Source of the DNA: a virus
Taxonomy: Duplodnaviria > Heunggongvirae > Uroviricota > Caudoviricetes
Virus record (IMG/VR): IMGVR_UViG_2565956714_000004
DNA: 35,772 nucleotides
Reading direction: 5' to 3' (one strand)
Part shown: piece after piece, positions 1-11,897 of the stretch
Numbering within the stretch: the first letter of the stretch is position 1
How the letters are laid out: every line of letters starts with the position of its first letter
The notes under the pieces: model-generated
What the model saw: the letters and a program-made list of their open reading frames with translations, nothing else
The model's database searches: none
What the model was told of the DNA's origin: nothing
Translations under genes and position numbers: made by a program

Positions 1-1053
1 TTACGGGGTAATGCCAACCGCTGCCGCCACTTTGTCGCCACTTGGCAGCGTTGCCAGAGGATTGAAACGGAGCGCCGTTTCCAGATGATCCGGTGCCAGA
101 TGAGCGTAACGCATAGTCATTTTTATATCGTGATGTCCGAGGATTTTTTGCAAAGCAAGGATATTTCCACCCGACATCATGAAATGCGCCGCAAACGTAT
201 GGCGCAGAACGTGTGTCAGTTGACCGCGAGGGAGCACGATTGACGTTTTTTCCATCACGGATAAAAATTGAAAATAGCAGTCTGTGAAGAAATTGAACCC
301 ATCAAGCGCCATGATCTCTTCATAAAGCTCTTTACTGATAGGGATGCTTCTGTTTTTCTTCCCCTTCGTTCTTACAAAGGTAATTCGGTATTTAGTCACC
401 TGTGATCGGGTAAGGTTTATTGCTTCTCGCCAGCGTGCGCCTGTGCTTAAGCATATCTTGACTACCAGTGCCAGAATTGGGTCCTGACGTTTGCAATCAG
501 CCAGCAGTTCAACAATCTGCTCATGGGTAAGCCATGCCATCTCTTTTTCTGCGATGGTGAATTTTCGCATGTTCTCCAGTGGGTTTGGATACGACCATTC
601 GCCCAGGCGGGATAGTTCGCTAAAAACACTACTTAGATAGCTTTGCTCCAGGTTAATGGTGACCGGGCTTGCTCCTTTCTTCCATTTCTCGCTGAAGTAG
701 ATCTCACCTGTCAGGCGTTTATCTCGATAGTGGGCAAACATTTTAGAGGTGAGATCGGTTGCAAGGGGATTGCCCAGAGCGTCAACCATCAACAGCAATT
801 TATCATAGACATGCTGCCCAGCGGTTAGAGATTTACCATGTAGTTTGAACCATAGCTCAACCACGTCTTTCAGTGTTCGACGATCCACTGATTCTCCCAG
901 CCAGGGCTTTGCTTCGGTTTCTTCCATCGTATGGCGCTCAAAAGCCAGAGCTTCGCCTTTGGTGGCGAATTGTTTACGCACACGACGCCCACTACGTCCG
1001 GCGGGGTAACATTCGCAAAGCCATTTTCCTGTGGTGAGTTTTCGTACTGCCAT
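1..1053 (-). CDS. int: tyrosine integrase, P2/186 family
   Basis: Translation has the conserved C-terminal catalytic region (ICLSTGARWREA ... HVLRHTFAAHFMMSGGNILALQKILGH ... MRYAHL) and N-terminus MAVRKLTTGKW typical of P2-like Int. Start chosen at ATG 1051..1053 rather than the upstream extension in the ORF track; stop at 1..3. Confidence 0.9.
   Translation of the reverse strand: MAVRKLTTGKWLCECYPAGRSGRRVRKQFATKGEALAFERHTMEETEAKPWLGESVDRRTLKDVVELWFKLHGKSLTAGQHVYDKLLLMVDALGNPLATDLTSKMFAHYRDKRLTGEIYFSEKWKKGASPVTINLEQSYLSSVFSELSRLGEWSYPNPLENMRKFTIAEKEMAWLTHEQIVELLADCKRQDPILALVVKICLSTGARWREAINLTRSQVTKYRITFVRTKGKKNRSIPISKELYEEIMALDGFNFFTDCYFQFLSVMEKTSIVLPRGQLTHVLRHTFAAHFMMSGGNILALQKILGHHDIKMTMRYAHLAPDHLETALRFNPLATLPSGDKVAAAVGITP
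19..40. repeat. attL: attL core (direct repeat cgctgccgccaCtttgtcgcca)
   Basis: Matches 32918..32939 at 21/22 positions; lies inside the 3' end of int. Confidence 0.6.
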
Positions 1054-1239
1054 AAAAAATGCCCTCCAATAGAGAGCATTTTTACTGTATATATAACCAG
1101 TGTCAATGTATGAAATCCTGCGACCATACATCTCACTGAAGCCATAATGAAGTTGGCTATTTTTTGCTATGTGAGTATGTGACTTTTGCGGTTAGCCTGC
1201 GGCTCATTGTTATATTAGGCGCAGATATAAAAGCAAAAT

Positions 1240-1431
1240 TTATCGCGAGTTTTTAGTACAGATTTTTTTTGATTTACTAATAGTTCCATCATTGCAAACG
1301 AACTTTCCATCGGAGGTACAGTGAGAGACACCTCCCTTTTTCCCAGAACAAGGATAATTTTTAGCATAGGTAGTTAGTGGGTTTAATAACAAAGAGCATG
1401 ATAAAACCACAAAAAATACCTTACCAAGCAT
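1240..1431 (-). CDS. small secreted cysteine-containing protein (cargo/moron), 63 aa
   Basis: N-terminal signal-peptide-like hydrophobic segment ([23 protein letters not shown]) followed by ~40 residues with 4 Cys; strong RBS GGGAGGA upstream; AT-rich; sits between cI and int on the same strand. Confidence 0.5.
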
Positions 1432-1446
1432 AGTTTCCTCCCGGTA

Positions 1447-2022
1447 TTACCTAACGTACTTAATTGTTAAACTTATAATTTTCCCAATTATTTCAACATC
1501 TTCTATCTTGCACTCGAAGGCTCTGCTTCCACCTTCAACGAAGATTCTTCCACCGGGTAAACGAGTAATATCGCGGATTGTTATTTCGCCATCAATACTT
1601 ATTACCCATTTACCGTCACGTATATCATCAAATTCTTTATCACAAATAAATTCAGAATTGTTATCTGTGATGACAAAAGGTTTTTTAAACGTAGAGGGTA
1701 GAAATCCCTTATCAAAAATATAAAAACCGTCTTCACGCAAGGCACCATCAGATAATACATATTTAGCAACTTCCATAGTATTTGTATTACCTGAAGTTTG
1801 CTTTGAACCATGTCCGGTTGTGAGCCAATTAAGCGAGGTGCCCGTTTCAAGGGCGCACTGGATTACCCATTCTGCTGGGAATGAGTCACGCATGTAGCGT
1901 GTGGCGAGTGTACTTTTAGAGATTCCTAAATGATCGCACAACGCCTGTCGAGTTTTGAATCCATAAGCTTCTACCATGCGCTCTATAGCGCCTCGTCCGC
2001 CTTTCTCCAAATTCATGGTCAC
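1447..2022 (-). CDS. cI: 186-type CI immunity repressor
   Basis: 191 aa, N-terminal HTH-like region (TRQALCDHLGISKSTLATRYMR) and C-terminal oligomerisation domain; position upstream of int, divergent from apl/cII. Confidence 0.8.
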   Translation of the reverse strand: MTMNLEKGGRGAIERMVEAYGFKTRQALCDHLGISKSTLATRYMRDSFPAEWVIQCALETGTSLNWLTTGHGSKQTSGNTNTMEVAKYVLSDGALREDGFYIFDKGFLPSTFKKPFVITDNNSEFICDKEFDDIRDGKWVISIDGEITIRDITRLPGGRIFVEGGSRAFECKIEDVEIIGKIISLTIKYVR

Positions 2023-4797: not shown

Positions 4798-5624
4798 AAG
4801 AAATGCACCACGGAATTCATCATTTCCATGGGACGCCTGTCTGGGGAAGTGCTGGCGACGTTCATCGTATTGCGGTGAGCGGAGCTGGCGCTTTCGTCTC
4901 CTATGTACGACCAGATCAGATTGCGGCGTCCATTCAGCACGCTCAGGTCGTCGGCATTGATAACGGCGCATTTTCTGCATGGGTGCGTGGGCTAAAAATT
5001 AACTGGAGTGATTTTTATAAATGGCTCCTGAACTATTACCACCATCCTAAGGTCGCTTTTTTTGTCATTCCTGATGTTGTGGACGGAGGTGAACGTGACA
5101 ATGATGCCCTGATAAACGAAGTTCCGAAAATGTTCTACGGGAAGGCAACTCCCGTCTGGCATCTGCACGAGTCAATCGAGCGGCTTATCGAGCTATGTCG
5201 TGAATGGCCTCGTGTCTGCTTTGGATCGTCTGGTGAATATGCGGCTATCAGAACTGCGCACTGGCATCGTCGTATGCAGGACGCTTTTGAAGCAATTTAT
5301 TGCCGACACAATTTCAAAACAGCTGTTCATGGTTTGCGCATGCTTGACGGTCGTGTGTTGGGAAATTACCCACTGGCGACTGCCGACAGTACAAATCTTG
5401 CCTGCAATGTCCCCAAATTTAATAGCAAATATCCTGAGCTGACGCGGGCTATTCAGGAGGCTGAGTATTCGCGCAATCTGACGGAAAAGGAGCTGAAAGC
5501 TGTCATTCTGAAAAACCGTTGCGCAATTTTAAAAGGTGCAATTGAAGCTGTTCGCCCACCTTCAGTTTCTGATTGGCTGTCGAATGGTTTGCAGCCTTCA
5601 CAGCTCGAACTGGAGATTGCGTAA
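4794..5624 (+). CDS. unknown protein with TGT (queuine tRNA-ribosyltransferase)/DpdA-like motifs, 276 aa
   Basis: GTG 4794 overlaps the dam stop (alternative ATG at 4803). HGTPVWGS near the N-terminus and VGIDNGAFS resemble the TGT substrate motifs (TP-F-PVGT and D-S-G-G-F-Q); no CxCxxC zinc motif. Assignment tentative. Confidence 0.45.
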
Positions 5625-7996
5625 TGAGCTACAGCTATTCCTGGAATGCTGAGAAAAAAGCAATCAATCCTTACGTAGAGACAGAAGAGCAATCTTCAGT
5701 TTCTGCGCTTTCAAACCTGATCGCTCTGTACGCTGCCGATAACGAGCAGGAACAGCTGCGCCGCGAGGCACTGAGTGATCAGGTCTGGGAGCGTTATTTC
5801 TTTAATGAATCCCGTGATCCTGTCCAGCGCGAAATGGAGCAGGATAAGCTCATTAGTCGGGCAAAGCTGGCGCATGAGCAGCAGCGTTTTAATCCAGATA
5901 TGGTCATTCTGGCGGACGTCAATGCCCAGCCTTCCCATATCAGCAAGCCGCTGATGCAACGTATTGAATACTTCAGCAGCCTGGGCAGGCCAAAGGCTTA
6001 TTCCCGCTATTTGCGTGAGACGATTAAGCCATGTCTGGAACGGCTGGAGCATGTACGCGACTGTCAGCTATCCACTTCTTTTCGCTTTATGGCAAGCCAT
6101 GAAGGGCTGGACGGCCTGCTGATCCTGCCTGAAATGAGTCAGGATCAGGTGAAACGCCTGTCCACCCTGGTAGCTGCGCATATGAGCATGTGCCTTGATG
6201 CAGCTTGTGGCGATTTGTATGTCACCGATGACGTTAAGCCAGAAGAAATCCGCAAGACATGGGAAAAGGTGGCAGCGGAAACCCTGCGTCTGGATGTCAT
6301 CCCGCCTGCGTTTGAGCAACTCCGCCGGAAAAGAAACCGCCGTAAACCCGTGCCCTATGAACTCATTCCGGGTTCGCTGGCGCGTATGTTGTGCGCTGAC
6401 TGGTGGTACCGGAAATTATGGAAGATGCGTTGCGAATGGCGGGAAGAGCAGTTGCGTGCTGTCTGCCTGGTCAGCAAAAAAGCATCTCCCTATGTCAGCT
6501 ATGAAGCCGTGATGCATAAACGTGAGCAGCGCCGTAAGTCGCTGGAGTTTTTTCGTTCTCATGAACTGGTGAACGAAGACGGCGACACGCTGGACATGGA
6601 GGATGTGGTAAACGCCAGCAGCAGCAACCCTGCGCATCGCCGCAATGAGATGATGGCCTGTGTTAAAGGCCTGGAGCTTATCGCGGAAATGCGCGGTGAC
6701 TGCGCCGTTTTCTACACCATCACCTGTCCGTCACGTTTCCATTCCACGCTAAATAATGGCAGGCCCAACCCAACTTGGACAAATGCGACGGTAAGACAAA
6801 GCAGTGATTATCTGGTCGGCATGTTTGCTGCATTTCGTAAGGCGATGCACAAAGCCGGATTGCGGTGGTATGGCGTGCGGGTGGCTGAGCCGCATCATGA
6901 CGGTACAGTTCACTGGCACCTGTTGTGTTTTATGCGCAAAAAAGACCGCCGCGCCATCACTGCATTACTGCGTAAGTTTGCCATCCGTGAAGACCGCGAG
7001 GAACTGGGCAATAACACTGGGCCGCGTTTTAAGTCTGAGTTGATTAACCCGCGCAAAGGTACGCCAACAAGCTACATCGCGAAATACATCAGTAAGAACA
7101 TTGACGGGCGTGGTCTGGCTGGCGAGATCAGCAAGGAAACGGGGAAATCCCTGCGTGATAATGCTGAATACGTTAATGCCTGGGCGTCTTTGCATCGTGT
7201 TCCGCAATTCCGCTTCTTTGGCATTCCGGGGCGTCAGGCTTACCGTGAACTGCGATTGCTGGCTGGTCAGGCGGCAAGGCAACAGGGGGACAAAAAAGCA
7301 GGTGCGCCGGTACTGGATAACCCGCGCCTTGATGCCATCCTGGCTGCTGCTGATGCTGGTTGTTTTGCCACCTACATCATGAAGCAGGGCGGCGTACTGG
7401 TTCCCCGCAAATATCACCTCATCAGAACCGCTTATGAAATCAACGAAGAGCCGACCGCCTATGGCGATCACGGCATTCGTATTTATGGCATCTGGTCACC
7501 TATTGCAGAGGGCAAGATCTGCACTCATGCCGTGAAGTGGAAAATGGTTCGTAAGGCCGTTGATGTTCAGGAGGCGGCAGCCGACCAGGGCGCTTGCGCC
7601 CCTTGGACTCGTGGCAATAACTGTCCCCTTGCTGAAAATTTGAACCAGCAGGAGAAAGATAAATCAGCTGATGGGGACACCAGAACGGACATTACCCGCA
7701 TGGATGACAAGGAGTTGCACGATTATCTGCACAGTATGAGCAAAAAAGAGCGCCGGGAACTGGCTGCAAGGTTACGCCTGGTTAAGCCGAAACGGCGTAA
7801 AGACTACAAACAGCGAATTACAGATCATCAGCGACAGCAGCTCGTCTATGAACTGAAGTCCAGAGGATTTGATGGCAGCGAGAAAGAGGTCGATTTACTC
7901 CTTCGCGGTGGCAGTATTCCGTCAGGAGCAGGCCTGCGTATCTTCTATCGGAACCAGCGTTTGCAGGAAGATGATAAGTGGCGGGATCTGTATTAA
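5624..7996 (+). CDS. A: replication initiator (gpA rolling-circle endonuclease)
   Basis: [15 protein letters not shown] (HUH metal-binding motif) and [14 protein letters not shown] (active-site Tyr region) match P2 gpA; start at ATG 5624 (TAATG overlap with upstream stop). Confidence 0.85.
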
Positions 7997-8958: not shown

Positions 8959-9654
8959 ATGGAATTATTATTTCAAAATTACCAAGCATCATATTTTACA
9001 AACAATTCTGATGTCACTGCTACACCGCCAGTGCTTTCGATGCTGTTGTCTAATTTGGCTGCGTTATCCCTTTTACCCATGTTTGGGCAGGAGTTGAATG
9101 CTTTAACAGGGGAAAAGCGTCAAATAGTTATTATGACTTCGCCTGACCAAAATTTTCGGGTTGAATTTCCCTTGGGGGCTATTGTCTTTCATGGAGTCGG
9201 CGGTTCCAGTGAAGAGTTCATAAATAAAGTTAAAGATATTATGAAGTCTTTACAGTCAATATTCCCTAATAAAAAAGCGACAAGACTGTCAGTTATTAAT
9301 TCATATTTTTATCATGATAGTCAGGATAATTACTCCAGGCTTTACAGAGAGCTATTCACTCATCGTAATGCAGAACCATTTGAATGGGATAATCGTATTG
9401 TTGAGCGAGTCAATTTGAAAAATTTAAATGAGAGTGTGAATAGTGGGAGTACTGTTCGTCGTTGTTTCATTCAGACTCCATTAGTAAATAATAATCATCC
9501 AACAGAAGTAATAAACTTTGAGGTGGATACAAATACATTGGCAGAAAATAATTCGCTTCGGTTTGATTTTAATTCTGCGAACTCTATTGTTAGTGAGTTG
9601 CAAGAAAATAATGCCAATTTAATTGAGCAATTATCTCGTTATACGAATAAGTGA
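8959..9654 (+). CDS. hypothetical protein, cargo operon gene 1 (231 aa)
   Basis: Long ORF in strongly AT-rich DNA, AGGAGG RBS; no recognisable motifs. Confidence 0.6.
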   Translation: MELLFQNYQASYFTNNSDVTATPPVLSMLLSNLAALSLLPMFGQELNALTGEKRQIVIMTSPDQNFRVEFPLGAIVFHGVGGSSEEFINKVKDIMKSLQSIFPNKKATRLSVINSYFYHDSQDNYSRLYRELFTHRNAEPFEWDNRIVERVNLKNLNESVNSGSTVRRCFIQTPLVNNNHPTEVINFEVDTNTLAENNSLRFDFNSANSIVSELQENNANLIEQLSRYTNK

Positions 9655-9661
9655 GGCTGCC

Positions 9662-10321
9662 ATGGATAAAAATTATGGAAATATAATTTTGTCTGAGGCT
9701 TCGTCAGAAGTTAACACTATTATTAATGATAATAACTTTGACCGTTTTTTGGTTAACTCATCAGTATCTGATAACTCAAAAAAATTATCCTCTTATGTAG
9801 CTAACGATATTAGAATAAATTCAAATAAAACAGCAGTTCAAGCTGGCTCGTTTTTTTTGAAAAAAATTGATGATTCAAATAATTCTTTTGAAAGCATAGT
9901 CATTAAAAAACAAAAAATGACTATGAGTTTACTATTTTCAGAAGATTATGTTGAAGGTGAAATCACTAAGACTCAACTTTATCTTGAAGGCCTTTACAAA
10001 GAAAATTCATTTGTTTTTAGGGAGGTTTTTCAACGGGTTTGGTTAGACCTCTTTCGCAATAAAAATACGTATGAATTACGAAATTTCATATGTGTTGCAT
10101 CTTGCTTAGAATATGAAATTCTTGGTGATAAGGCTGATGCTATCATATTGGCTGCATCGGTTTATGATGATAAATATGTAAATGAAGCAGCTCTGCGTGC
10201 GGCAGAAGGATGGGGCAATCCACAACTTGCACTATATCTAAATGGAATAAGAGATTTTGGAATAAGTTGGTTGGATAATTATAAAAAATCTGTCATAGAC
10301 TATTTGGGACGCATGCAATGA
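9662..10321 (+). CDS. hypothetical protein, cargo operon gene 2 (219 aa)
   Basis: ORF starting 7 nt after gene 1 stop with GAGG RBS; AT-rich; no recognisable motifs. Confidence 0.6.
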   Translation: MDKNYGNIILSEASSEVNTIINDNNFDRFLVNSSVSDNSKKLSSYVANDIRINSNKTAVQAGSFFLKKIDDSNNSFESIVIKKQKMTMSLLFSEDYVEGEITKTQLYLEGLYKENSFVFREVFQRVWLDLFRNKNTYELRNFICVASCLEYEILGDKADAIILAASVYDDKYVNEAALRAAEGWGNPQLALYLNGIRDFGISWLDNYKKSVIDYLGRMQ

Positions 10322-10842
10322 GTTATTTGTTAAGAAAAATATCAATTGCAAAATGGGAACCTAACTTAACATTGCAGCCTGATAATTTTTCAGGCGATGC
10401 TATTACTGGGTGTACACGAACAAAGAATAATACTCTTTCTGTTTGGGCTTCAGATTCAATTGACTTTACCACAGAGGATGTCGAGAAAATCGTTGTTGCA
10501 TTAGCTACAACTATGTCCTCGCCTGATATCATTGATCTTATTTGGTTGGATGAGGACTGGCTTAGAGAAAATGGTGTTCAGATAGCTAACAATCCGGGGC
10601 AAAGTAAGTTTGAAGCTGTAAATCCTATGCATAGGGATTTAGTCGCTATTGACCATCGACAACTTGCAATAGTTGGACAACATATAGTAGAGCAATATAA
10701 TGCAAATCCTGAACTGTATTATAAGCGTTATTCTAGGCCAGAAATTATAGCTTTGGTTCATAAATGGTTGACAAAAAATAATACATTTAAGCTAGAGGAT
10801 TTGCATGAGAAATGGGTAAAGCCTCTTGATAAAATAAAATGA
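10318..10842 (+). CDS. hypothetical protein, cargo operon gene 3 (174 aa)
   Basis: ATGA start/stop overlap with gene 2 (translational coupling); AT-rich; no recognisable motifs. Confidence 0.6.
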   Translation: MSYLLRKISIAKWEPNLTLQPDNFSGDAITGCTRTKNNTLSVWASDSIDFTTEDVEKIVVALATTMSSPDIIDLIWLDEDWLRENGVQIANNPGQSKFEAVNPMHRDLVAIDHRQLAIVGQHIVEQYNANPELYYKRYSRPEIIALVHKWLTKNNTFKLEDLHEKWVKPLDKIK

Positions 10843-10865: not shown

Positions 10866-11897
10866 TTATTTTAGGTCATAAGGAATGAACTTAATGAGTT
10901 CACATCCAACAAACTCATTAAGTTCTTCTATTCTTTTCTGAAGCGGGAGCAATTCATTACGTACGAATACCTTACTGGCCTTCTCCACATCCCCAAACCC
11001 CCCGACATTATTAGGCATTATCCCCATCATTTGTGGCGGCACACGATGCGCCGCCATCATGTCGTCCCGGCTCACGTTCTTGATATTCAGGAACTCATCC
11101 TTCGCCGCCACTTCTGACAACGGGATAATCTGAAGCCCGTCCTTTTTGCCGTTAGGCGAGTACATAAACAGGTTGCGGAAGTTACCCGGTCCTTTGGCGC
11201 TTTTCATCGCGTTGCGGAGGTTGTTCACGTCCTCCTGGTTCTGCGCGGCATCGGTCATGTACATGATGAAGCCCGCATGACTGCCGTTAATGTAATACTT
11301 GCGACGGAACAGCGTGGCGGACTCATTGAGCAGGGCTGACGGAATAGCAGAAAGATAGCCGGGCAGGCCATAGATCTCCTGATTTATGTCCGGTTCCATC
11401 AGATGGAAAATGCTGCCTTTCGTGAACTGATACGGCTGCGTGGTCATGCCGTATTGCACAAACCAGTAGGTATCCAGGTCTAAACCGCGTCGGGTGTATT
11501 TTGCCAGCGCAGGTTCAAGGGCGATAACTTCACCGAAGCGGTTCGTGCGTTTCTCCAGATAGGCGTTACCAAATACCAGATAGTCCTGTACAAAACGCGA
11601 AAAAGCCTGTTGGCTGAGCAGCGGATGAGGGATATAGGTACTGGTCAGAATGTTGCACTTTACTGCAATCGGGGAACTGTGATGCACGGCAGCGCGGAAG
11701 GTGCGCGCCAGTCCGTCAAAGCTGACGGGCGGCTCATACCAACGGTCCATCTGTACGCATTCCACATAGTCCAGTAATTCTCGGCGGTCCAGAACTGGAA
11801 CGGGATCGCCGAAGCTGAATGCTTCGGCTGTAGTCTGGTTTTTATGCTGGATCTGATTCGTCGCCGCAGTGCGGTTTTTCTTACTCTTTCCCATCAA
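10866..11897 (-). CDS. Q: portal protein (gpQ)
   Basis: 343 aa, size and position as P2 gpQ, immediately downstream of and overlapping the terminase large subunit gene. Confidence 0.85.
   Translation of the reverse strand: MMGKSKKNRTAATNQIQHKNQTTAEAFSFGDPVPVLDRRELLDYVECVQMDRWYEPPVSFDGLARTFRAAVHHSSPIAVKCNILTSTYIPHPLLSQQAFSRFVQDYLVFGNAYLEKRTNRFGEVIALEPALAKYTRRGLDLDTYWFVQYGMTTQPYQFTKGSIFHLMEPDINQEIYGLPGYLSAIPSALLNESATLFRRKYYINGSHAGFIMYMTDAAQNQEDVNNLRNAMKSAKGPGNFRNLFMYSPNGKKDGLQIIPLSEVAAKDEFLNIKNVSRDDMMAAHRVPPQMMGIMPNNVGGFGDVEKASKVFVRNELLPLQKRIEELNEFVGCELIKFIPYDLK

Follow-up and report, generated by a model that had tools for sequence, protein, structure and literature searches.

The junction between the repressor gene cI and the integrase gene int of temperate phages has been described as a site for accessory genes, and several known systems bear on what may be encoded there. 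In K139-like Vibrio phages, this junction is a recognized defence hotspot (Rousset et al. 2022, PMC9122126). Phage K139 itself encodes Glo between cI and int; the annotation of Glo is that of a periplasmic protein with a part in phage exclusion. Neither the hotspot nor the notion of a periplasmic exclusion protein in this place is new. In parallel, short proteins annotated as 'YdcA family protein' or 'hypothetical protein' are present in hundreds of genomes and are covered by Pfam, NCBIfam and PHROG models. A third reference point is Dis2 (Lpg0823), a Dot/Icm outer-membrane-cap protein that lies beside the outer membrane and contacts DotC, DotD and DotK (PMC8486379, PMC12716638). Here we analyze a stretch of viral DNA of 35,772 nucleotides (IMG/VR record IMGVR_UViG_2565956714_000004, hereafter the window) and a small open reading frame (ORF) on its minus strand, at 1240..1431, between cI and int. 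This ORF belongs to the YdcA family (PF27300; NCBIfam PRK10040) and is a functional cargo gene of the prophage. Beyond its annotation, the analysis adds a strict linkage of YdcA to cI, a YdcA gene left unannotated in Haemophilus phage HP2, a relationship to Dis2, and associations of the family with nucleases and with proteins of the oligonucleotide/oligosaccharide-binding (OB) fold. We hold the identity, expression context and export of the product, taken alone, with great confidence, and its function far more tentatively.

The precursor coding sequence encodes 63 residues and, stop codon included, runs from an ATG at 1431-1429 to a TAA at 1242-1240. Direct reading of the sequence places a Shine-Dalgarno element, GGAGG, at 1437..1441 (minus strand), 5 nt 5' of the ATG. 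The original prediction, made from the letters of the window, had described a 63-residue ORF between cI and int and on their strand, in AT-rich DNA and behind a strong ribosome-binding site, and the coordinates, the GGAGG and the GC content (35-36% over 1101-1500 versus 47-51% in most of int) agree with this description. So do its signal-peptide-like N-terminus and Cys-rich part of ~40 residues. Residues 1-23 (1363..1431, minus strand) form a predicted Sec signal peptide, with a basic K4, a hydrophobic core from V5 to L19 (Kyte-Doolittle means of 1.9-2.7 over nine-residue segments) and a T-Y-A motif after which cleavage is predicted. The leaders of homologues are all hydrophobic but differ and are unalignable, and all of them close with a motif of the A-x-A type (A-x-A/F-A/Y-A) at one column of the family alignment. 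Behind the variable leader, the mature part is almost invariant across the family, as is usual for exported proteins that are selected for their mature part.

The mature peptide (KNYPC...NSR; 40 residues, 1243..1362, minus strand) carries the core motif of the family, PCSGxKGG[IV]xxC-x(3-5)-FxCxDGxxSxSKxxC, as established from alignments and column frequencies. It contains four cysteines (C28, C38, C46 and C58 of the precursor), with a net charge of +7 and an isoelectric point of 9.6; a fifth, C12, is located in the leader. AlphaFold models it as a β-hairpin plus a short helix; the mean predicted local distance difference test (pLDDT) score is 81 for this mature peptide, compared with 76 when the whole precursor is modelled. 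We predict with high confidence that Sec exports the product and that cleavage follows residue 23 (A23). With equally high confidence, the released peptide is expected to become oxidized in the periplasm, yielding a mini-protein of ~4.3 kDa with a net charge of +7 and, as we assume, two disulfides. A lipoprotein reading of Cys12, of the Llp or Cor type, was rejected: the sequence V-L-S-C falls inside the hydrophobic core, and homologues either lack this cysteine or present it in a non-lipobox context. Cleavage by signal peptidase I after A23 is the consistent reading of the predicted leader.

Short ORFs abound in the window, with 41 of at least 30 residues in its first 4 kb, so independent evidence is needed that the small ORF is a gene. 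Homology search showed that it is no orphan but a member of a catalogued family. Along its entire length, the product scores 116.1 bits with the NCBIfam equivalog model NF007463 (E = 4.2e-34), above the curated cut-off of 93, and it also matches PHROG family phrog_6000 (E = 5e-34). A word-indexed search retrieved 64 relatives, nearly all of which carry Pfam PF27300, the family named 'YdcA'; one of them, P0001, is 97% identical to the window protein and carries PF27300. An exhaustive profile search of the representative library expanded the family to 459 clusters at 50% identity. The window protein has every residue that is invariant in the YdcA alignments (C, S, G, G, C, F, C, G, S, S, C).

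The pattern of divergence points in the same direction. Among 5426 complete E. coli genomes, 632 contain the DNA of 1132-1446; BL21(DE3), where the identical DNA is at HO396_RS04310, and ATCC 8739 are two of them. Two alleles that are ~92% identical to the window at the DNA level differ from it by 11 and 9 synonymous codons, respectively, and by two non-synonymous ones each, the latter confined to the leader or to K24R, the first residue past the predicted cleavage site. Within the core (residues 25-63), the alleles show no non-synonymous change against nine synonymous ones, an outcome that we estimate would arise by chance with a probability of ~1e-5, taking roughly one random change in four to be synonymous. 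Because divergence in the core is synonymous only, the small ORF is under selection. One diverged allele reads GGAGT at the Shine-Dalgarno position. Over a longer distance, the core is ~75% identical to its HP2 counterpart, whereas the neighbouring cI proteins share 32% identity.

The window protein shares with the rest of the family a Sec leader and a single core of ~32 residues with four invariant cysteines. It differs in being a prophage-borne sub-type linked to a phage repressor gene, and it is more basic than most members. Compared with YdcA of E. coli K-12 (b1419), it shows 57% identity overall and the same core motif, but it falls short of the cut-off of NF007462 (68 bits against 118), which we take to be the model of the K-12 ydcA orthologue. 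The phage gene is a paralogue of chromosomal ydcA, not its orthologue.

The occupancy of the cI-int junction in other phages and prophages places the gene in context. In phage 186, cI and int abut, and in P2 the 115 nt between C and int hold no annotated gene, as the original prediction had stated for both phages. The same prediction had made its claim depend on conservation in related prophages, and the gene recurs at the same position: E. coli, Klebsiella, Yersinia and Hafnia all have 186-like prophages in which a YdcA gene stands directly after cI, and the Haemophilus phages HP2 and S2 share this order. The HP2/S2 homologue is an unannotated ORF of 60 residues whose ATG overlaps the cI stop codon by one base. 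Two metagenomic P2-like prophages have the order cI, OB-fold protein, YdcA, int, and in one of them (L039) the YdcA stop overlaps the int start by one base. The linkage of YdcA to cI is strict from Enterobacterales to Pasteurellaceae. Other phage carriers of YdcA infect Moraxella, Acinetobacter and Pseudomonas, and plasmid carriers come from Acinetobacter, Psychrobacter and Rhizobium. Chromosomal copies, of which K-12 ydcA is one, are located among housekeeping genes.

The remaining cargo of this junction is varied. Klebsiella phage 4LV2017 carries a protein of 349 residues, and E. coli phage 813R9 one of 558 residues that matches the PADLOC model PD-Lambda-1 at 3.1e-120. Several E. coli and Klebsiella prophages encode, directly behind YdcA, a KAP NTPase whose match to the candidate defence protein PDC-S20 has an E-value of 2.6e-171. 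The cargo loci were mapped to L008 1642-2973 (minus strand), L013 5198-6529, L024 4198-5529, L005 4091-5767, L004 3567-4616 and L029 4247-5290, and their products are a KAP NTPase (PDC-S20; PifA weakly), PD-Lambda-1 and two unrelated proteins of ~347-349 residues without a family match. In E. coli 730V1 (L009 1873-2853), ISKpn26, an IS5-family element, is inserted in the 3' end of a YdcA-like gene and truncates it.

YdcA shares with the defence cargo of the hotspot an insertion site bounded by the cI stop codon and the conserved int leader. It differs from that cargo in being exported, as predicted from its leader, whereas the others are cytoplasmic, and in its place, since YdcA is first after cI whereas the other cargo varies. 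A close counterpart in genomic arrangement is K139 Glo, likewise a small exported protein (for YdcA, by prediction) whose gene lies on the lysogenic strand of a P2-related phage, between cI and int. Glo is, however, 137 residues long, has no four-Cys core or YdcA motif and shows no sequence similarity to the window protein; K139 was absent from the tblastn matches of YdcA among phage records, and the exclusion phenotype is annotated for Glo only. The position of Glo between cI and int provides the working model of a prophage-expressed envelope exclusion factor.

The immediate surroundings of the gene suggest how it is expressed. The gap between cI and the small ORF (1432-1446) measures 15 nt, ACCGGGAGGAAACT on the coding strand, and leaves no room for a promoter or a terminator; the one simple reading is that the ORF is transcribed along with cI. 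We expect with high confidence that the small ORF is transcribed in the lysogen together with cI, from the lysogenic promoter. The spacer of 186 nt between the ORF and int is more elaborate and folds far better than its shuffled versions (z = -3.6). Directly before the int ATG lies a terminator-like hairpin of 13 bp with a U-run (1055..1083, minus strand; minimum free energy -17.5 kcal/mol, z = -5.2). An A-tract and the U-run flank this hairpin, whose 3' arm is formed by the int Shine-Dalgarno sequence, GGAGGG. Its 5' arm is overlapped by a promoter-like element, TTGACA-17-AAAAAT (1078..1106, minus strand), a candidate int promoter that represents a consensus match only, at 10 of 12 positions. 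The block TTGAC...ATACAGT is kept in eight related loci, and the element is conserved in the form TTGAC-17-(A/T)AAAAT. An equivalent hairpin and U-run precede int in the E. coli KAP-NTPase prophage (L013), a Hafnia prophage (L029) and phage 813R9 (L005), and the stems differ by lineage (GUCCUCA/UGAGGAC, GCCCUCA/UGAGGGC) with pairing kept. A terminator scan reported no minus-strand terminator between the small ORF and int; it missed the hairpin because the stem consumes the U-run. The leader in the window (1055-1106) also carries an inverted repeat, ACTG-N10-CAGT, and equivalent leaders were located at L013 6553-6621, L029 5317-5385, L005 5791-5859 and L024 5553-5621. A scan of 900-2500 against Rfam returned a plastid 3' untranslated region as its sole match, below threshold and by chance.

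Read-through from cI and its cargo is probably terminated, attenuated or translationally masked before int, judging from this predicted structure. On the simplest reading, transcription from the int-proximal promoter would begin past the 5' arm of the hairpin and so yield a translatable message. The steady-state lysogenic mRNA would then consist mainly, and probably, of cI and the small ORF. The original prediction had placed cI, the small gene and int on one transcript. Its first half stands, in view of the 15-nt gap and of the overlap in HP2, whereas the extension to int is doubtful given the hairpin with its U-run and the promoter-like element.

The family also resembles Dis2, which has been published as Legionella-specific and without structural homologues (PMC8486379, PMC12716638). 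It is the best and only convincing match of the YdcA family profile in the PDB (hmmsearch), with E-values of 2.4e-4 when leaders are included and 1.6e-3 with mature domains only. Hhalign of YdcA against a Dis2-like sequence returned a probability of 91.7%. Foldseek searches with both AlphaFold models placed Dis2 at the top (probability 0.85-0.94, 38-39% identity, query-normalized TM score 0.61-0.64), the next match having a probability of 0.10. PF27300 is already assigned to a metagenomic Dis2-like fragment (P0214 and P0215 were examined alongside chain AN of PDB entries 7MUC and 7MUD). Each lobe of Dis2 carries CC-SK-MGG-I-x-Y-C...G-x-L-VCNNG-x-x-S, and Dis2 is a periplasmic, disulfide-rich protein under the outer membrane, a location proposed for the phage protein as well. 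The differences are equally clear: Dis2 comprises two lobes with five disulfides and is present in 13 copies as a stoichiometric subunit of a secretion machine, whereas the phage protein is a single free domain with four cysteines in a host without Dot/Icm. The prophage neighbourhood of the small ORF contains no type IV secretion system genes. The window protein is related to Dis2 at the domain level and is not its orthologue; Dis2 appears to be built from two YdcA-type domains. As the papers call Dis2 Legionella-specific, its relationship to YdcA was apparently not noted there, and a protein published as restricted to one genus is suggested to be made from a widespread domain.

Domain partners and gene neighbours were surveyed in the best 150 of the 459 family clusters. 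A leader and YdcA domain are fused to SNase (E = 5e-24), to Endonuclease_NS (three proteins, down to 8e-33) and to the phospholipase D-type domain PLDc_2 (5e-19); the HNH match in one further fusion protein is weak (0.009). These nuclease-fusion proteins (P0097, P0139, P0182, P0166, P0167 and P0184 of the representative library) have the YdcA domain at the N-terminus, after the signal peptide. Other fusions join YdcA to the C-terminal region of VasL, of type VI secretion (one protein), or to a basic PBCV adaptor domain, and tandem members contain one or two further copies of the YdcA domain. Secreted tRNA_anti-like OB-fold proteins, homologous to one another, have their genes next to YdcA in HP2 and two other P2-like prophages, and also on a plasmid of Acinetobacter lwoffii. 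The other downstream neighbours, on a Psychrobacter plasmid, an Acinetobacter plasmid and a Moraxella chromosome, are mutually unrelated. On the Moraxella chromosome and in phage Mcat17 (L033 4186-4884, L002 3126-3578), YdcA is followed by a membrane-anchored Glu/Lys-rich protein; these neighbours share an N-terminal transmembrane segment and are distinct from the OB-fold partner. Basic residues recur in the YdcA domain itself: the lysine of 'GxKGG' (core position 7) is present in 95-98% of sequences, SKK or SKR precedes the last cysteine in ~90%, and 150 of the 159 unique domain sequences carry a net positive charge.

These observations can be assembled into a sequence of events for the window protein. 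In the lysogen, the lysogenic promoter would transcribe cI together with the YdcA gene; Sec would export the precursor, which would be cleaved after residue 23 and fold oxidatively in the periplasm. There the peptide could serve as a small binding module on the inner side of the outer membrane, with a polyanion (DNA or lipid phosphates) or an outer-membrane-proximal machine as its possible ligand. The likeness to Dis2 speaks for a place near the outer membrane, and the nuclease fusions, the conserved basic residues and the OB-fold neighbours speak for a link to DNA or another polyanion. The prophage YdcA would in this way constitute a constitutive envelope barrier to superinfecting phage, and possibly to transforming or conjugative DNA. 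The role as an entry barrier is proposed because of the analogy to Glo and the defence content of the hotspot. Our confidence in the last two steps, the binding module and the DNA-entry barrier, is moderate to low, and the explanation as a whole, exclusion included, is offered tentatively, as plausible but short of probable. A broader formulation, extended to the entire family, seems to us unlikely as it stands: YdcA would be an extracytoplasmic DNA- or polyanion-binding module, homologous to the Dis2 lobes, that mobile elements (P2/186-like prophages, siphophage late regions and plasmids) deploy as a free entry-exclusion factor of ~4 kDa, sometimes with a secreted OB-fold partner, against superinfecting phage, transformation or conjugation.

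Several points weigh against an exclusion function. The literature searches gave no experimental datum on any phage YdcA protein, and no model of PADLOC-DB 2.0 matches the window protein at E ≤ 0.01. E. coli is not naturally transformable, so a link to competence would be applicable only to other hosts. A domain that anchors the nucleases would explain the fusions no less well than one that binds DNA, and both export and disulfide bonding are predictions. Chromosomal copies among housekeeping genes make a housekeeping envelope role equally natural. For chromosomal ydcA, the only reported phenotypes are that its deletion makes cells sensitive to 3-hydroxypropionate and that the gene is induced at acid pH; phage resistance is not among them (PMC7642389), and deletion of dis2 in Legionella is almost without phenotype (PMC12716638).

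The housekeeping copies lead directly to the main rival, in which the prophage gene is a conversion gene for host fitness that supplies an extra, constitutive dose of the chromosomal YdcA function in envelope stress or acid and organic-acid stress. The 57% identity and shared core motif with K-12 YdcA are consistent with such a role, as are the single-copy chromosomal members amid housekeeping genes, the sensitization of E. coli W to 3-hydroxypropionate by deletion of ydcA and the reported induction at pH 5 under YdcI (PMC7642389). However, E. coli already has ydcA and a second copy needs a reason. The repeated carriage of the gene by phages and plasmids and its place in a hotspot otherwise occupied by defence genes also speak against a fitness role, and a stress function leaves the nuclease fusions and OB-fold neighbours unexplained. 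On this balance a fitness gene is possible, and we find it doubtful.

The relationship to Dis2 can be read in another way, with YdcA as a pure protein adaptor of the outer membrane that, like a single Dis2 lobe, docks on a lipoprotein or on a secretion, pilus or receptor complex and binds no polyanion. Its effects could include masking of a receptor or modulation of a secretion system or of vesiculation. The contacts of Dis2 with the lipoproteins DotC, DotD and DotK (PMC12716638) agree with this proposal; so do the members with two or three tandem domains, which resemble the two-lobed Dis2, and the single fusion to a VasL C-terminal region. E. coli nonetheless lacks Dot/Icm and offers no known partner, a polyanionic ligand is indicated by the basic residues that the family keeps and by its repeated association with nucleases and OB-fold proteins, and the near-invariance of the core in Haemophilus, Moraxella and E. 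coli argues against a host-specific partner. We consider an adaptor of this kind unlikely.

Far less probable is a cationic, disulfide-stabilized antimicrobial or competition peptide, similar to defensins or bacteriocins, that lysis or vesicles would release onto neighbouring cells. Its size of 4.3 kDa, net charge of +7, probable two disulfides and carriage on mobile elements would suit such a peptide, but no immunity gene, processing gene or dedicated exporter is adjacent, and an ordinary Sec leader would leave the peptide in the periplasm. Moreover, nucleases and a structural protein of a type IV secretion system contain this domain as an internal module, and housekeeping chromosomal copies exist. 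Finally, a lack of any protein function, with the ORF either a chance frame or translated only to couple or space the expression of cI and int, might be suggested by its shortness, its AT-rich DNA and the abundance of short ORFs in the window, but it is effectively refuted by profile E-values of ~1e-34, the 459 clusters and a core that diverges only synonymously and is conserved far better than the adjacent cI.

The entry-exclusion reading would have consequences beyond this window. YdcA is among the many small envelope proteins of E. coli without an assigned function, and its phage form is one of the commonest occupants of the cargo site between repressor and integrase in 186-like prophages, including that of BL21(DE3). 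The Dis2 lobes, the nuclease fusions and the OB-fold partner together provide a concrete hypothesis that is testable in an existing strain. If entry exclusion is the true role, YdcA would represent a new, very small and very widespread class of factor, present in ~12% of complete E. coli genomes; if the protein is a plain envelope-stress factor, the finding would be an ordinary one, an annotated family member at a known hotspot.

Other matches and names were set aside. A GULLO2-like Pfam match of the ORF (E = 0.068, sub-threshold), obtained with a Pfam set scanned without PF27300, was judged spurious, and similarity to LDL-receptor class A repeats and plant proteinase inhibitors in the PDB profile search (E = 0.04-8) was attributed to Cys-rich composition. 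Metal binding is unlikely because the histidine of 'SHC' is conserved in only 73-79% of sequences. The label 'Conjugal transfer protein' of a UniRef cluster is of unknown provenance and was not used as evidence. Literature under 'ydcA' mostly concerns homonyms (a B. subtilis rhomboid protease, a plasmid methylase and an ORF of a gonococcal island), and searches for 'YdcA family', PF27300 or the BL21 accession found nothing.

The genes around the small ORF identify the host element. The integrase gene occupies 1..1053 (minus strand; Pfam Int_N and Phage_integrase), with its ATG at 1053, preceded by GGAGGG, within a listed ORF of 1-1131. The 186-type repressor cI lies at 1447..2022 (minus strand; Pfam Phage_CI_repr, 2.8e-33, and Phage_CI_C, 3.6e-28), and the RefSeq annotation of identical DNA in BL21(DE3) starts it at window position 2016. 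An apl/cox-like gene (2142-2363) and cII (2390-2905) follow on the plus strand. The host genes ybjL and ybjM are found at the right end of the window, and int adjoins rcdA in RefSeq genomes with identical DNA, so the window is a complete 186-like prophage at the rcdA/ybjL site. By megablast, the int module (1..1053 plus 1054-1111) is 96-97% identical to Klebsiella phage 4LV2017 and E. coli phage 813R9; homology to the int module of the Klebsiella phage ends at 1111-1113, which delimits the insert to ~1112-1446.

Farther into the prophage, three consecutive ORFs of 231, 232 and 174 residues occupy 8959-10842 (plus strand) without a Pfam or PADLOC match. They sit between the replication gene (5573-7996) and a large leftward ORF (10866-11897), presumably the portal gene by comparison with the P2 map, and thus probably where P2-like phages have their old/tin defence hotspot. 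These three ORFs may represent an uncharacterized defence candidate.

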